Both the position numbers and the translations under genes were made by a program. This document shows positions 1 through 39,681 of a stretch of DNA of 39,681 bases, in pieces. The first letter of the stretch is position 1. Each line of letters opens with the position of its first letter. The notes under the pieces are model-generated. The model was not told where the DNA came from. It did no database searches and worked only from the letters and a program-made list of their open reading frames with translations. The stretch is from a virus, in the IMG/VR virus record IMGVR_UViG_3300045988_096728, positions 1-39,681 of that record; one strand, given 5' to 3'.

Positions 1-32
1 TTAAAAGGAACCCGATATATCGTTACCCCGGC
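1..32. repeat. Terminal direct repeat copy 1 (identical to 39650..39681)
   Basis: ttaaaaggaacccgatatatcgttaccccggc at both ends; contains perfect palindrome CGATATATCG at 13..22. Confidence 0.95.
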
Positions 33-6459: not shown

Positions 6460-6588
6460 TTAACATGATTCTATTTTTACCCTTCTTCTGCTAAAACAAA
6501 TACATCTACCAAATGGCAGATTGATCTGTAACCATGATTCAACGTATCTGTTCCCATTCTCCGTGTATTTTGTTATGTAGTGATGCAT
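6460..6588 (-). CDS. small conserved-looking protein (42 aa)
   Basis: Not in the ORF track. MHHYITKYTENGNRYVESWLQINLPFGRCICFSRRRVKIESC; AAGGAG 6 nt upstream of ATG 6588; its stop overlaps the ATG (6466) of a further possible 42-aa TM peptide ORF. Confidence 0.4.
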   Translation of the reverse strand: MHHYITKYTENGNRYVESWLQINLPFGRCICFSRRRVKIESC

Positions 6589-6649
6589 GGGGCTCTCCTT
6601 TCTCACTGTTTTGTGTTACAATGGTAAAAAACTATGGAGGTTATCGCCT

Positions 6650-6979
6650 ATGTACGATTTTGATAAAATTGATTTAACCATGAAGGAAAAATACAAACTC
6701 TTTGTCACAAAGATTCGAAAAGAGTCACCTGCTGAATATTTTGGTGATTCATTTTCCTATTTGTCAGAAATAAAATTTATCCAAAAAAATCTGCGCAAAA
6801 TATCAAGAAACCAATATAATTACACATATTTTGTTACTGACAAATACCATCGTTATCTCATCCATCAAAGAAACAAAGTATTCTTTGGAATCCTTACATC
6901 GTTCATTACTCCTATAGTTGTGTCTGTAATTACATCAATAGTGACAGTGTTAGTCCTAAAATTATTAGGCATAGGATAA
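6650..6979 (+). CDS. C-terminally membrane-anchored protein on the lysogeny strand (moron-like)
   Basis: GGAGG 9 nt upstream of ATG 6650; upstream TGtTACAAT extended -10-like element (about 6613..6621); C-terminal TM FFGILTSFITPIVVSVITSIVTVLVLKLL; AT-rich; opposite orientation to its neighbours. Confidence 0.55.
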   Translation: MYDFDKIDLTMKEKYKLFVTKIRKESPAEYFGDSFSYLSEIKFIQKNLRKISRNQYNYTYFVTDKYHRYLIHQRNKVFFGILTSFITPIVVSVITSIVTVLVLKLLGIG

Positions 6980-7200: not shown

Positions 7201-7400
7201 TTCTTAGGCAAAAAAATATAGTCTAGTGGCATCTTATATAATCTGGATAGTGTATCCAGTATAGCAAAAGATGGCGTAACTATACCTTTTTCCCAGTTAA
7301 TCACAGTTTTTTTACTCACTTTAAGCTTTTTCGCAACATCTTCCTGTGTCATTCCAGCATTTACCCTTGCTGCAGCTAATGTAATCTTAACACTACGCAA
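7191..7400 (-). CDS. Cro-like XRE-family HTH repressor (first lytic-strand gene)
   Basis: AGMTQEDVAKKLKVSKKTVINWEKG is a typical XRE HTH; TTG start with AAGGAG 10 nt upstream; divergent from the CI-like gene. Confidence 0.85.
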   Translation of the reverse strand: MRSVKITLAAARVNAGMTQEDVAKKLKVSKKTVINWEKGIVTPSFAILDTLSRLYKMPLDYIFLPKKST

Positions 7401-7425
7401 CTGTTATCATCTCCTTTCACATATC

Positions 7426-7454
7426 AGAATACCATCACTTTAAGTGGATGTCAA
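7426..7454 (-). promoter_or_regulatory. early lytic promoter (TTGACA-17-TATTCT with TG at -15/-14)
   Basis: Minus-strand reading: ttgacatccacttaaagtgatggtattct; the spacer contains operator 7434..7449. Confidence 0.6.
7434..7449. promoter_or_regulatory. operator-like site (ATCACTTTAAGTGGAT)
   Basis: Imperfect palindrome CACTTTAAGTG between -35 and -10 of the lytic promoter. Confidence 0.6.
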
Positions 7455-7466
7455 CACTAAAAGTGA
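7455..7466. promoter_or_regulatory. operator-like site (CACTAAAAGTGA)
   Basis: Same CACT-N3-AGTG palindrome, centre 18 bp from the previous site. Confidence 0.5.
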
Positions 7467-7483
7467 ATTTTTTTCATTTTTAG

Positions 7484-7512
7484 TTGATTCAAATTCCCTT
7501 TAGGTGTATAAT
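7484..7512 (+). promoter_or_regulatory. lysogeny-strand promoter (TTGATT-17-TATAAT)
   Basis: ttgattcaaattccctttaggtgtataat lies 24 nt upstream of the CI-like ATG. Confidence 0.6.
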
Positions 7513-7535
7513 GAGCATTGCAAGGAGGTGTTGAT

Positions 7536-7928
7536 ATGCCATACGAGGAATTTAATAAATTATTTGCTAAAAATCTACGATATTACTTAAATAAAAATAA
7601 TATGACACAGGCTGAACTTGCAAAACGCTTAAATGTTGGAACTACATCTGTATACAACTGGTGCAACGGTATTAAATCACCAAGAATGGATAAAGTAGAT
7701 GCCATGTGTGATATATTCAACTGTAAGAGATCTAACCTAATTGAAGATAAAGAACATGTTGAAGAAAATGAATACTATCTTGATCCGGAAACAGCTAAAA
7801 AGGCACAGGAGATCTTTGAAAACAAGCAACTCTCTCTTCTCTTCGATGCCGCAAGGGACGCAGAGCCAGAGGACTTGGAAACAGTTCACACAATGCTCAT
7901 GGCTCTCAAGAATAAAGAGAAACGATAA
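7536..7928 (+). CDS. CI-like XRE-family repressor (HTH only, no S24 peptidase domain)
   Basis: NNMTQAELAKRLNVGTTSVYNWCNG is an HTH; AGGAGG 7 nt upstream of ATG 7536. Confidence 0.85.
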   Translation: MPYEEFNKLFAKNLRYYLNKNNMTQAELAKRLNVGTTSVYNWCNGIKSPRMDKVDAMCDIFNCKRSNLIEDKEHVEENEYYLDPETAKKAQEIFENKQLSLLFDAARDAEPEDLETVHTMLMALKNKEKR

Positions 7929-7995
7929 TGTACAAAAAACATCCCACGGTATTTGTTATTGTATCTACGACTATGTTACAAGGGGGATGAGTTAA

Positions 7996-8232
7996 TTGTA
8001 TGATATAAATGTACAGATGATGGATCTGAAGACTACAAAAGTTAAAGAAACTGTTACCTGCAATGAAGATGGTTCATATACTATCTTTCTTAATACACGA
8101 TTCACACAGGAGCAGCTTAACGATGCTTATATCCATGCACTCAACCATATCATCAGAGCAGACTTTGATAAACACACTAGCTCTGTAGATACCATTGAGG
8201 CTTATGCGCATGGGTTAAATAAAATTCTATAA
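7996..8232 (+). CDS. short ImmA/IrrE-like protein with a degenerate metal-binding motif
   Basis: ..YTIFLNTRFTQEQLNDAYIHALNHIIRADFD.. resembles short ImmA/IrrE proteins but reads HALNH where HExxH is expected; TTG start with AGGGGGA 8 nt upstream; directly follows the repressor. Confidence 0.5.
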   Translation: MYDINVQMMDLKTTKVKETVTCNEDGSYTIFLNTRFTQEQLNDAYIHALNHIIRADFDKHTSSVDTIEAYAHGLNKIL

Positions 8233-8252
8233 GAAAAAGGGGGGATAATTTT

Positions 8253-8699
8253 ATGAACATTACGGAATATATAAAAACACGAGTTGACGATCAGATTGCA
8301 TGGTATGATAAGAAATCTGTAACATGCCAGCGTTGGTATAAGGTCTTTCAGGCAATAGAAATTTTCATAGCCGCCAGCATTCCTGTACTCTCTGGTTATG
8401 CCAGCAAGTATGGTGTAATACCTTTGATTATAGGTATTGAGGGAGCTATTATAACTATAGTTGAATCTATCACCAGATTGTACAAGTTCCATGAAAACTG
8501 GATAGAATACAGAACTACATGCGAACTTCTGAGATATCAAAAGCATTTGTATCTTACAAGCTCTGCACCGTATAATGCAGAACCTGAAAGCATTGAGAAT
8601 ATTTTTGTAAGGAATATTGAGAATATTATATCTTCTGAAAATAATAAATGGAAAGCTGTCAATATGCAGGAAATAACAGAGAAAAAAACTGTTAATTGA
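8253..8699 (+). CDS. DUF4231/SLATT-like two-TM effector protein
   Basis: IAWYDKK.., two TM helices ([19 protein letters not shown]; [19 protein letters not shown]), then [20 protein letters not shown]; G-rich SD 8 nt upstream of ATG. Confidence 0.7.
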
Positions 8700-8889
8700 T
8701 CCTTTGATATGTTTTTTCAAATATATCTGGTTTGCAGGGATATTGCTCTCCGTTTACTCCTGTGATGATCCAATCACCGGGAGATGCGGTCATCTTTCCC
8801 TCTAATGTATCAATAATTATTTTTACATCTGTTTGATAAGCCTCTACAATTACAGGTTTCTTTTGAAATTTTTGTTTACAGGAACTCAT
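8692..8889 (-). CDS. conserved phage protein of unknown function
   Basis: ..[41 protein letters not shown] is a motif I recognise from widespread uncharacterised phage/bacterial proteins; GGAGGTG 5 nt upstream of ATG. Confidence 0.6.
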
Positions 8890-8924
8890 AAATACACCTC
8901 CAAAAAGAAAGGGGATTCAAAAAT

Positions 8925-9341
8925 ATGACTACATATAATATTTTTATAAGCCACGCTTGGAAATATACCGAACATTACAATAAAATTGTTCAGTGGCTCG
9001 ATGAGGCACAGGACGAGGGTAAATTCAAATGGAAAAACTACTCTGTTCCGGAACATGATCCGCTTATTGATCCAAACAGTTCGGCTGGTAAAAACAAACT
9101 AAAATCAGAACTTAACGAGCAGATCCGACCAGCCTCAAAAGTTATTATCCTTGCCGGTATGTATGCTGCCTACAGTGATTGGATTGACTATGAACTTACA
9201 ACTGCTGTAAACATGGATAAGTACATAATTGGCGTAAAACCGTGGGGACAGGAACGTGTCCCTGCTATTATAACTAATAATTCCGACACTATTGTAGGTT
9301 GGAATAAAGATTCCGTTATTAATGCAATTTTAAATTCTTAG
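8925..9341 (+). CDS. TIR-like protein, ThsB/DUF1863 type
   Basis: YNIFISHAWKY..Y, VIILAGMYAAYSDWIDYELTTA (Glu90 at the catalytic-Glu position), IIGVKPWG, IVGWN. Confidence 0.8.
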   Translation: MTTYNIFISHAWKYTEHYNKIVQWLDEAQDEGKFKWKNYSVPEHDPLIDPNSSAGKNKLKSELNEQIRPASKVIILAGMYAAYSDWIDYELTTAVNMDKYIIGVKPWGQERVPAIITNNSDTIVGWNKDSVINAILNS

Positions 9342-9378
9342 GATTTATTATAACAGATGTAAATAATTATAACAACCT

Positions 9379-9408
9379 GTGTTCCTCGGCATACCAGCCG
9401 AGGAATAC
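9379..9408 (+). terminator. 12-bp stem hairpin downstream of the TIR-like gene (no clear U-tract)
   Basis: gtgttcctcggc-atacca-gccgaggaatac. Confidence 0.3.
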
Positions 9409-9494
9409 ACTTAAAAATTGAATAGTGTATTTAACCGGGCAACCGAGGGGTGTTACACCATATCCGTTCGAGTCTTGGAAGGGAGTGGTGCCTT

Positions 9495-9572
9495 ATGAGT
9501 ACATATGAGGAATTTATGGTTATATTAACCACTGCAATACTTATTGTAACGATTCTGAATAATAGAAAATAA
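9495..9572 (+). CDS. holin-like toxin (Hol-Tox-type) 25-aa hydrophobic peptide; type I toxin candidate
   Basis: Not in the ORF track. MSTYEEFMVILTTAILIVTILNNRK; GGGAG 9 nt upstream; matches the M-S/T-x-Y-E..hydrophobic..K pattern of 'putative holin-like toxin' peptides. Confidence 0.6.
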   Translation: MSTYEEFMVILTTAILIVTILNNRK

Positions 9573-9666
9573 GAAAAACACCTCGGCCTGACAAGCATAC
9601 GGGGTGTTTTCCTTTAGTCATGTTTGCCGGACGGATAGGAAGTATCTATCGCTCGGCTGTCTTGTT
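9565..9666 (-). ncRNA. putative antisense antitoxin sRNA (3'-overlapping)
   Basis: Would start about 7 nt downstream of the consensus promoter at 9673..9700 and end at the bidirectional terminator; overlaps the toxin stop codon and 3' UTR; ends are estimates. Confidence 0.4.
9574..9610. terminator. bidirectional hairpin terminator at the toxin 3' end
   Basis: aaaaacacc..(19-nt loop)..gggtgtttt, with T-rich runs after it on both strands. Confidence 0.5.
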
Positions 9667-9672
9667 AAGTAC

Positions 9673-9700
9673 ATTATACAACATTTTATGTATTTGTCAA
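9673..9700 (-). promoter_or_regulatory. consensus sigma-A promoter pointing antisense to the toxin ORF
   Basis: Minus-strand reading: TTGACA aatacataaaatgttg TATAAT (16-nt spacer). Confidence 0.65.
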
Positions 9701-9856
9701 AACAAAAAAGTCCAGAGCGTTGTCACTTCCCTCATACCGGGAGGACGTTGCTAAGGACTTGTTATAAAATCCCCCAGGTGTTACCAGCACCCGGAGGATA
9801 GTTACCCACAAACCGAAGGCTTATGACTAACGTTTCAACAAACTACATTATATCAC

Positions 9857-9887
9857 AAGCCTTCCATTTTTGATAGGCTTATTTTTT
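9857..9887 (+). terminator. hairpin plus T-run just upstream of the int RBS
   Basis: aagcct-(12 nt)-aggctt atttttt. Confidence 0.35.
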
Positions 9888-9916
9888 ATGCCTATTTTTA
9901 AGAAAGGATGATTGAT

Positions 9917-10975
9917 ATGAGAAATGCAAACGGATTCGGATCTGTGTATAAGCTGTCTGGAAAGCGCAGGAAGCCATGGATTGCTCGTAAAACGAAAGGA
10001 TGGGCTATTGACGAAGAATCAGGAAAGGCTAAGCAGTTATATGCTACCATCGGCTATTACAGTACCCGGGCAGAAGCTCTTACTGCTCTGACCAATTATA
10101 ATCAGAATCCCTATGATATTGATACCGTAAATATTACATTCTCTGAACTCTATGATAAATGGTCAGATATACATTTTCAGGAAATAGTACCATCTGCCGC
10201 AAGAACATGGGCATCTGCTTACAATCACTCAAAGCCACTCTGGGACATGCGAATGAGAGATATTCGTCCTAATCACATGGAGGGAACGATCCGGAATGCA
10301 GATGTTGGTCAGAGTACGAAGCAAAGAATGAAATCTCTCTACAACATGCTCTATAAATATGCTATGAAGCTGGAGATTGTTGATAAGAACTATGCCCAGA
10401 TGTGTGATTCCATCAAGCGTGGAAAGTCTCAGATCATTCGTGTTCCATTTACGCCGGAGGAAATAGATTTACTCTGGAAGAACATAAACTATGGTGTTGT
10501 TGATATGATTCTAATTGGTATATACAGCGGATGGCGACCACAAGAATTGTCTATCTTGAAAATAGCTGATATTGATCTGGAAAATAATACCATGTTCGGC
10601 GGTCTTAAGACTGATGCAGGGCGCAACAGGTGCGTTCCTATTCATCCAAAAATAAGAGATTTGATCATAAAACGAGTAGACCAGGCTAAAGAATTGGAAT
10701 CCGATTATTTATTCAATGATCCGGATAGTCAGTCTGGTATGCGCATGACATACGACAAATACAGAAGCCGTTGGAATAAGGTCATGGGAAAATTAAAACT
10801 CTCCCACCGTCCTCACGATACAAGACATACATTTATTACATTGGCAAAAGATGCTGGCATGGATGAATACATCATAAAGCTGATAGTTGGTCATTCTATC
10901 GAGGATGTGACTGAGAAAGTGTACACCCACAGGACCATGAAGCAACTTCACACTGAAATTGAAAAGATAGAATAA
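9917..10975 (+). CDS. int: tyrosine integrase with N-terminal AP2-like arm-binding domain
   Basis: GFGSVYKLSGKRRKPWIARKT (arm-binding domain); catalytic R (GWRPQEL), HDTRHTF, GHS..VYTHRT; ATG 9917 has AAAGGA 8 nt upstream (ORF open from 9908). Confidence 0.95.
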   Translation: MRNANGFGSVYKLSGKRRKPWIARKTKGWAIDEESGKAKQLYATIGYYSTRAEALTALTNYNQNPYDIDTVNITFSELYDKWSDIHFQEIVPSAARTWASAYNHSKPLWDMRMRDIRPNHMEGTIRNADVGQSTKQRMKSLYNMLYKYAMKLEIVDKNYAQMCDSIKRGKSQIIRVPFTPEEIDLLWKNINYGVVDMILIGIYSGWRPQELSILKIADIDLENNTMFGGLKTDAGRNRCVPIHPKIRDLIIKRVDQAKELESDYLFNDPDSQSGMRMTYDKYRSRWNKVMGKLKLSHRPHDTRHTFITLAKDAGMDEYIIKLIVGHSIEDVTEKVYTHRTMKQLHTEIEKIE

Positions 10976-10981
10976 AAAATA

Positions 10982-11018
10982 TGGGGCAACAATCATTATA
11001 ATTGCTGCCCCATTTTTT
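10982..11018. terminator. bidirectional rho-independent terminator after int
   Basis: tggggcaacaat-cattata-attgctgcccca followed by tttttt; A-run on the other side. Confidence 0.7.
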
Positions 11019-11062
11019 GTTAGTTACGAGTGTTAGTTACCTGTTAGTTGTTTGTTAGTTAC
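11018..11062 (+). repeat. phased direct repeats TGTTAGTTAC (3 perfect + 1 partial); candidate integrase arm-type sites of attP
   Basis: Copies start at 11018, 11031, 11042 (partial) and 11053; spacing 13/11/11 bp. Confidence 0.7.
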
Positions 11063-11192
11063 AATCACTTTTTCAGGTATTTTCACGTTTCTTTATTTGG
11101 CTTATTTCCTAGCTTTTTTAGAACTTACCAGCCTTTGCAGCTTCCTCAACAGAAACAAGAAATGGCTTAAAACCTTACTATTTTAATGGTTT

Positions 11193-11211
11193 TGTGTCTT
11201 GTATGTGTCTT
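11193..11211 (+). repeat. direct repeat TGTGTCTT x2, 11 bp apart (within putative attP)
   Basis: 11193..11200 and 11204..11211. Confidence 0.5.
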
Positions 11212-11277
11212 ACCTCGTTTCTCTAAGGTATCCTGTTCTTTCCTTATTTATATAAGCACTTATATATTATCACAATA

Positions 11278-39649: not shown

Positions 39650-39681
39650 TTAAAAGGAACCCGATATATCGTTACCCCGGC
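39650..39681. repeat. Terminal direct repeat copy 2
   Basis: Exact 32/32 match to 1..32. Confidence 0.95.

Follow-up and report, generated by a model that had tools for sequence, protein, structure and literature searches.

The 39,681-nucleotide IMG/VR virus record IMGVR_UViG_3300045988_096728, analyzed here over its whole length (hereafter the window), encodes between positions 8253 and 9341 a SLATT membrane protein and a ThsB-type TIR protein on the plus strand, split by a gene for a 65-amino-acid (aa) protein on the minus strand. Our analysis suggests that these three genes constitute a prophage type VII Thoeris defense system carrying its own cognate antidote gene, a reading to which we assign a probability of about 50%. 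The SLATT-TIR pair is homologous to components of validated type VII systems, and the antisense gene is a conserved third component of the pair. The inhibitory role proposed for the small protein is suggested by an architecture like that of the phage defense and inhibitor genes tha/ith and from the fusion of its homologues to known anti-Thoeris sponges.

The SLATT-TIR pair as a probable type VII Thoeris system

Operons of a TIR and a SLATT gene have recently been described as type VII Thoeris, with ThsB as the TIR protein and ThsH as its effector (Yirmiya et al., bioRxiv Dec 2025, Sorek laboratory, 10.64898/2025.12.03.692087). According to this preprint, three such systems defend against phage in E. 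coli or B. subtilis, functioning as two genes; their TIRs produce canonical cyclic ADP-ribose (cADPR) in an infection-dependent manner, cADPR is specifically toxic to cells bearing type VII Thoeris, and the sponges Tad1 and MoTad2 do not inhibit the type (10.64898/2025.12.03.692087). An earlier note on this DNA, made from its letters, had taken the pair for an uncharacterized candidate defense system with no experimental characterization; that claim falls, since TIR plus SLATT is type VII Thoeris and has been tested (10.64898/2025.12.03.692087). A literature search for DUF4231, TIR, and phage together returned no paper.

The TIR gene, thsB (8925..9341, plus strand), specifies a 138-aa ThsB-type signal synthase that matches Pfam ThsB_TIR (PF08937; E 2.7e-18, 66.6 bits, cut-off 21.2) and PADLOC ThsB (E 2.2e-14). 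Its product aligns end-to-end with the validated type VII ThsB of Pseudohongiella nitratireducens (IMG 2745918373; 36% identity over 134 aa, E 2e-30), whose system is scored "Yes" for defense in the preprint (10.64898/2025.12.03.692087). Glu90 (codon at 9192..9194, plus strand) is invariant in 127/127 aligned TIR homologues and aligns with the glutamate of validated type VII and type VIII ThsBs. A catalytic role of this glutamate is established for TIR NADases, and Glu90 is the putative catalytic residue of the window TIR.

Upstream, the thsH-like gene (8253..8699, plus strand) encodes the candidate effector, a 148-aa protein with a single SLATT_1/DUF4231 module and two predicted transmembrane helices. 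It scores 75.4 bits against Pfam DUF4231 (E 5.5e-21) and 126.6 bits against NCBIfam SLATT_1, over the respective cut-offs of 24.7 and 41, and matches Pfam SLATT_1 with E 1.4e-12. The AlphaFold2 (AF2) model is all-helical, with a mean predicted local distance difference test score (pLDDT) of 84.7 and a helical hairpin at residues ~30-77. Hydropathy and the AF2 helices H3-47 and H55-77 delimit a predicted transmembrane hairpin (residues ~30-48 and ~54-77; 8340..8483, plus strand), which would insert into the membrane. No solved structure resembles the window SLATT by sequence or fold. No model in PADLOC 2.0 calls this protein, and the program sees the locus as an orphan ThsB only.

The effector was further compared through a metagenome scan for loci whose TIR shares 95% identity with the validated Alteromonadales ThsB; the preprint gives TIR-domain sequences (Table S1). 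The window SLATT is 42% identical (E 3e-38) to a short single-module SLATT (locus L149) whose adjoining TIR is 71% identical to the validated type VII ThsB from Alteromonadales. It also aligns, at 25% identity (E 5e-6), with the SLATT_1 module of a 294-aa SLATT_3 + SLATT_1 effector, which adjoins TIRs 95% identical to that same ThsB. In a marine metagenome locus (L146, 3048-5760), a short SLATT_1 gene, a TIR gene 71% identical to the validated Alteromonadales ThsB at the protein level, and a 420-aa open reading frame (ORF) lie on one strand; this may be a dual-effector (ThsH + ThsI) operon of the kind named in the preprint (10.64898/2025.12.03.692087).

TIR and SLATT genes co-occur in dozens of independent loci and are found together in most of the fetched loci and in all 36 cassette-type viral loci; in the window the two are neighbors, but split by the antisense gene. 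Because both proteins match their families over the cut-offs and are homologous to components of validated type, Glu90 is retained, and the pair is conserved, we consider it very probable that the pair is a prophage-borne type VII Thoeris system. At the level of sequence, it has everything that defines the type and is a new, prophage-borne, minimal-effector member of it. It shares with the described systems, which also occur in Bacillota according to the preprint, a ThsB-type TIR adjoining a SLATT membrane effector. It differs from them in its effector, a single 148-aa SLATT_1 protein versus the 294-aa SLATT_3 + SLATT_1 protein of the Alteromonadales type, in an operon split by a conserved antisense gene, and in its residence in the lysogeny module of temperate phages and of a satellite.

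Most of what the earlier note had claimed for the pair thus stands: the positions of both ORFs and of the 65-aa ORF with their motifs, the SLATT/DUF4231 and ThsB-type TIR calls, a glutamate at the catalytic-type position, and the reading of the pair as a defense system. Conservation of the two genes as neighbors in related prophages, which it had set as a check, was also found. The location it gave, a moron site on the lysogeny strand in AT-rich DNA, was right as well. The plus strand forms the lysogeny module (CI, a 78-aa ORF, SLATT, TIR, and integrase), nearly all other genes are on the minus strand, and no other 1-kb bin of the window is as AT-rich as the SLATT-TIR segment (GC 0.343 versus ~0.41).

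A conserved antisense gene within the operon

The gene between SLATT and TIR (8692..8889, minus strand) encodes a short protein of 65 aa, the proposed cognate anti-Thoeris off-switch, and shares 8 nt with the 3' end of SLATT. Substitutions in it concentrate at third codon positions, and the ratio of nonsynonymous to synonymous substitution rates (dN/dS) is 0.05-0.18 where dS is estimable; it is therefore a real protein under strong purifying selection. The earlier note had correctly described this gene as conserved; it missed that the gene is a third component of the pair and that its family includes fusions to sponges. No third, accessory, or antisense gene is mentioned in the type VII preprint (10.64898/2025.12.03.692087).

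Comparison of the three window proteins with 45 related loci, fetched via the TIR or the small protein, revealed that the layout of SLATT (plus), small gene (minus), and TIR (plus) recurs in Lachnospiraceae, Paenibacillus, Bacillus, an Acidaminococcales metagenome-assembled genome (MAG), Sedimentibacter, and IMG/VR contigs. The trio keeps the window's gene order in C. difficile phage phiCDKH01, and the order SLATT, TIR, small gene is found in S. pseudintermedius phages SpT5, SN8, and others, in Streptococcus phage Javan616, and in the satellite Javan277. In diverged cassettes, the small protein is 64-91% identical to that of the window, versus 33-57% for the TIR and 35-41% for SLATT, with one exception (L017, 40%). 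At large divergence, the small gene is thus the most conserved of the trio.

For the small protein, a census of its 80 closest viral homologues gave an all-or-none pattern. SLATT and TIR are both adjacent in 36 and both absent from the neighborhood in 44, and not one homologue has only one of the two beside it. Three gene orders occur among these cassettes, and in every cassette the small gene lies on the strand opposite to SLATT and TIR. The trio sits between the repressor/ImmA genes and the recombinase in all cassettes examined, and it shuttles as a unit among prophages whose repressors, replication genes, tyrosine integrases, and serine recombinases are unrelated. Together with the window, more than 40 loci have defense genes in a lysogeny operon that is split by a small opposite-strand gene. 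The small antisense gene is a conserved and previously undescribed third component of the pair.

The surroundings of the cassette vary. The same repressor plus Thoeris cassette (L001-L008 and L037-L045) is coupled to differing recombinases and integration sites: one cassette integrase, 86% identical to that of the window, lies beside a gene for a GGGtGRT-domain protein, another, 41% identical, lies beside rpsI/rplM, and relatives carry serine recombinases. The L005 and L006 copies share a contig, at a distance of ~40 kb; host genes follow one of them and phage lysis genes the other, which points to either a tandem prophage or a mixed assembly.

The small protein belongs to a large family. The only Pfam entry returned for it is PGDYG (PF14083), at 19.3 bits (cut-off 27) and over the first third of the 102-position profile, with which it shares the core PGD[WY]I-ITG-GE-YP-KPDIF-KTY. 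PGDYG is matched by 89 of 97 longer homologues, some of the listed homologues carry PF14083, and NCBI labels a 65-aa homologue as "PGDYG domain-containing protein." Since longer members pass the Pfam threshold, the window protein is best read as a minimal form of this uncharacterized domain. Its AF2 model (pLDDT 90) has six strands and one C-terminal helix; all its matches in the viral structure library BFVD are PGDYG proteins (top template modeling score, 0.81). It has no sequence match in the PDB, and Foldseek against the PDB returned only generic SH3/Tudor-like barrels with E > 1.

A profile search placed 20,925 clusters at 50% identity in the small-protein family, with up to 30 tandem copies per protein. 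The longest array was seen in a predicted protein of 3,743 aa (P0361), and 4-5 PGDYG-like copies occur in P0362 (892 aa) and in P0365, a protein of 1,452 aa that also matches Annexin. Beyond the sponge fusions, the domains joined to long members (Annexin, FYVE, DUF551, and Lar) gave no functional lead. Homologues are present in 856 of 50,697 phage records in INPHARED (1.7%), including virulent phages that infect Bacillus, Acinetobacter, Caulobacter, Mycobacterium, and Gordonia, with a cross-phylum core identity of up to ~75%. The stand-alone copies that we mapped are mostly co-directional within phage (lytic) gene arrays, and homologues in the lytic phages SBSphiJ7 and Acj9 have only unnamed small genes in their neighborhoods. 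Cassette and stand-alone copies differ little (median best cross-class identity, 81-85%).

Among the 97 longer close homologues, the commonest fused partner is a Tad2-like anti-Thoeris sponge domain (4/97); Sequestin (PF21825) is fused in 1/97, and 1/97 has a weak Lar match. The combination of PGDYG-like and Tad2-like domains was confirmed in P0443, P0463, and P0473 (67-79 bits), and that of Sequestin and PGDYG-like domains in P0409. The PGDYG-like parts of these fusion proteins are 63-68% identical to the window small protein. Fusion to known sponges is the criterion by which Tal et al. discovered Sequestin.

The junction between the divergent start codons of the small gene and thsB (8890..8924) is only 35 nt long and holds back-to-back ribosome-binding sites (GGAGGTG on the minus strand and AAAGGGGA on the plus strand), as read from sequence and alignment. 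The corresponding gap measures 29-68 nt in 15 cassettes, the window included. Because this is too short for intergenic promoters, TIR would most simply be cotranscribed with SLATT through the antisense gene. The TIR-directed promoter TTGAAA-18-CATAAA (8863-8892) suggested in the earlier note was not returned by our consensus scan, and its -10 hexamer overlaps the start codon of the antisense gene. The scan did return a candidate promoter of the lysogeny (cI) operon, TTGATT-17-TATAAT (7484..7512, plus strand; 10/12 positions), a divergent candidate for the cro-like gene (7454->7426, minus strand), and a candidate for the antisense gene, TTTCCA-17-TATTAT (8935..8963, minus strand; 9/12), located within the first 40 nt of the TIR ORF. 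Conservation of the latter is inseparable from the coding constraint of the YNIFISHAWKY motif.

Precedents in noncontiguous operons and sponges

The arrangement has tested counterparts. Staphylococcus aureus phage 80alpha carries the defense gene tha-1 within its cI operon; ith-1, a 66-aa antisense gene with its own promoter, overlaps the tha-1 3' end and encodes the Tha inhibitor, and this "noncontiguous operon" is needed for lysogen immunity and for productive induction (PMC11087260). Tai/Ati of phage phi80 is a second experimentally tested case (PMC11364771). In these pairs as in the window, the repressor and integrase genes flank a defense that belongs to the cI operon, and an opposite-strand gene of ~65 aa interrupts it or overlaps its 3' end. 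In tha/ith and Tai/Ati, the small gene is the cognate inhibitor that prevents autoimmunity at induction, and the defense is a single HEPN or tail-interference protein; the window, by comparison, has a two-gene signaling system and a small gene with a presumptive inhibitor role, drawn from a pan-phage family that extends to virulent phages. We searched for homology to Ith-1 and rejected it (BLASTP E 0.94; Ith-1 belongs to DUF7938, a different Pfam family). The resemblance to tha/ith is one of logic only.

Phage sponges (Tad1, Tad2, Sequestin, Lockin, TadIV-1, Acb2, and Acb4) offer the second parallel. Like them, the window protein is small, widespread in phages, and encoded among early accessory genes, and its family is sometimes fused to Tad2-like or Sequestin domains, as the sponges are to one another. 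It matches none of the known families in sequence or fold: TadIV-1 and Sequestin are helical, Tad2 is DUF2829, and Lockin was not found in the INPHARED phage genomes, in which the small-protein domain occurs in 856 records. Since Tad1 and MoTad2 do not inhibit type VII Thoeris, inhibition of cADPR signaling would be a new activity. The conservation of the small protein while TIR and SLATT diverge, and its near-identical copies in phages without the system, are more in keeping with an invariant target, for instance a small molecule, than with a tailored protein-protein inhibitor.

Proposed mechanism and alternative explanations

We favor, on slightly better than even odds, the 65-aa protein as the cognate inhibitor of the system, judging from its gene's position and its family's fusions. 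In the lysogen, the cI operon would express ThsB (8925-9341) and the short ThsH (8253-8699). Upon sensing a superinfecting phage, ThsB would use NAD+ to make a cyclic ADP-ribose signal, with canonical cADPR as the likeliest form; the signal would drive ThsH to oligomerize and breach the membrane, so that the infected cell dies or stops growing and the infection is aborted. At prophage induction, transcription from the cI promoter would drop and the antisense gene would prevail, through both its transcript and its protein; the latter probably sequesters or otherwise neutralizes the signal. Thoeris would thus be switched off in the lytic phase and the prophage would spare its own replication, by a logic akin to that of tha/ith, and phages without Thoeris would use the same protein in their lytic operons as a counterdefense. 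Signal identity, membrane killing, the transcription pattern, and inhibition by the small protein are all inferred steps of this scheme.

Several observations weigh against parts of this proposal. The TIR cluster of the validated Pseudohongiella ThsB (2734565194) mixes type VII, cADPR-producing type VIII, and type IV (caspase) ThsBs, and because of the type IV members, the signal is not deducible from the TIR alone. The effector retrieved next to a validated-type ThsB is the double SLATT protein of 294 aa and not a single module. The marine type VII loci retrieved have no PGDYG gene, and the system thus works without one. Neither Ith nor any known sponge family detectably resembles the small protein in sequence or fold. 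The fusion proteins derive from metagenomic gene calls, and two cultured phages considered as sources of PGDYG-Tad2 fusions, Dorea phage DO134P1 and Latilactobacillus phage TMW 1.2272 P1, were rejected: each has the Tad2-like domain with no PGDYG match, and in the Dorea phage protein the N terminus bears no relation to the small protein. The term PGDYG was found in no paper in our literature search, and the candidate promoters given here are consensus matches only. Finally, Bacillus sp. FJAT-27264 carries the trio in its chromosome with no obvious prophage genes and only a small helix-turn-helix (HTH) gene beside it.

For this last locus, a constitutive regulator is no worse an explanation than a lytic-phase switch. 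The small protein would then act as a buffer or antitoxin in every uninfected cell, either soaking up basal signal or keeping ThsH or ThsB inactive, and would set the activation threshold with no part in a lytic-cycle switch. The candidate promoter of its own inside the 5' end of TIR and the constitutive ith promoter of 80alpha (PMC11087260) are in line with such a role, and the sponge fusions would suit signal binding equally well. We nevertheless find it unlikely, because validated type VII systems work as two genes and the marine relatives dispense with the small gene, because the abundance of homologues in virulent phages without Thoeris points to an anti-defense origin on the phage side, and because strict opposite-strand placement is what would be expected of a differentially regulated antagonist. 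The size and wide spread of the family, the 44 of 80 closest homologues with neither SLATT nor TIR, and the small difference between cassette and stand-alone copies could instead mean that the gene is an independent accessory, with an anti-defense function directed at the systems of other hosts or an unrelated early function, that merely shares the repressor-integrase hot spot. Such coincidence is hard to square with the all-or-none census (36 with both genes, 0 with one alone) and with an adjacency that has outlasted three gene-order rearrangements, phylum-level host jumps, and a move into a satellite. Nor does it account readily for the overlap of the small gene with the SLATT 3' end in Lachnospiraceae cassettes, for its start 29-68 nt from the TIR start in all cassettes measured, or for joint travel among prophages with unrelated integrases and repressors; we hold it to be improbable, a little more so than the constitutive regulator.

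The pair itself might also not signal. Many bacterial TIRs are NADase effectors, and PADLOC 2.0 has no model that calls the window SLATT; the TIR could be an NAD+-depleting effector or sensor next to an unrelated SLATT, or the two could form a toxin-antitoxin or superinfection-exclusion module. Full-length homology to ThsBs that make cADPR only upon infection, the response of SLATT effectors of this kind to cADPR (10.64898/2025.12.03.692087), and the short SLATT_1 (42% identity to that of the window) whose neighboring TIR shares 71% identity with a validated type VII ThsB together make this very improbable. A type VII Thoeris system with its own antidote remains the reading that we prefer.

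Implications

Taken alone, the TIR-SLATT pair does no more than enlarge type VII Thoeris by one prophage-borne member with a minimal effector. If the small protein is indeed its antidote, this would be the first Thoeris-type signaling system with a cognate antidote in a noncontiguous operon, extending a principle shown so far only for the single-protein defenses Tha and Tai. Temperate phages of Bacillota would then package a signaling immune system and its antidote as one mobile three-gene cassette. The PGDYG family, which ranks among the larger uncharacterized phage protein families with ~21,000 clusters (50% identity), a presence in 1.7% of sequenced phages, and as many as 30 copies arrayed in one protein, would also gain a function, and one that can be tested. 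No inhibitors of the cADPR-based types VII and VIII are reported in the literature examined, and neither Tad1 nor MoTad2 inhibits those types; the small protein is a concrete candidate. For annotation, the locus is a caution: PADLOC 2.0 calls an orphan ThsB here, and two-gene definitions of type VII would miss the third gene.

The phage genome and its lysogeny module

The first and last 32 nt of the window (1-32 and 39650-39681) are the same in sequence comparison, so the window is a circular assembly, i.e., a complete temperate phage genome of ~39.65 kb. Copies identical to this phage were found integrated in human-gut metagenome contigs and close relatives in Lachnospiraceae MAGs and isolates; its host group is gut Lachnospiraceae. 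No tRNA was found in a tRNA search.

The lysogeny operon starts with a CI-like HTH repressor gene (7518..7928, plus strand; Pfam HTH_3 E 6e-12 and PHROG transcriptional repressor families). Between it and SLATT lies a 78-aa ORF (7996..8232, plus strand; phrog_20886, E 2e-21), which is kept beside CI in the close relatives L001-L008 and L019. The earlier note had called this gene ImmA-like, a label that we drop: an HALNH (H-x3-H) motif is present in the ORF, but Pfam gives no Peptidase_M78 match, and pairwise comparison with a real ImmA yields E 0.03. A full ImmA of 143-155 aa occupies its position in related prophages, and the product of the ORF may be truncated or unrelated.

The last gene of the lysogeny strand encodes a tyrosine integrase (9908..10975, plus strand; Pfam Phage_integrase E 1e-15), and endolysin and holin genes of the opposite strand come next. 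As these follow the integrase directly, the phage attachment site (attP) is expected at ~10976-11277. Just past the integrase stop codon, at ~10983-11018, a hairpin rich in G+C (GGGGCAACAAT...ATTGCTGCCCC) and the T-run behind it likely terminate the lysogeny-strand transcript; a terminator scan found no intrinsic terminators within 7300-10000.

TIR stop and integrase start are 566 bp apart. In an Rfam scan of 7300-10000, the cassette had no match, and the sole match, in this gap, was a weak one to BsrG (22.6 bits, E 0.012, under the gathering score). A short ORF in the gap ends in a hydrophobic C-terminal peptide, MSTYEEFMVILTTAILIVTILNNRK, and matches Pfam Hol_Tox weakly (E 0.013); the BsrG/Hol_Tox region spans 9420-9708 (plus strand), and a perfect TTGACA-16-TATAAT promoter runs from 9700->9673 on the minus strand. 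The gap looks like the site of a BsrG/SR4-type type I toxin-antitoxin module. The equivalent gap is only ~148 bp in L009 and L019, whose integrases are 97% identical to that of the window. Beyond the cro-like gene, a 130-aa ORF (6587-6979, plus strand) with a hydrophobic C-terminal segment lies amid early genes of the minus strand. It has no family match in a Pfam-type scan; relatives carry a gene of 109-113 aa at its position, and it could be another lysogeny-expressed moron.

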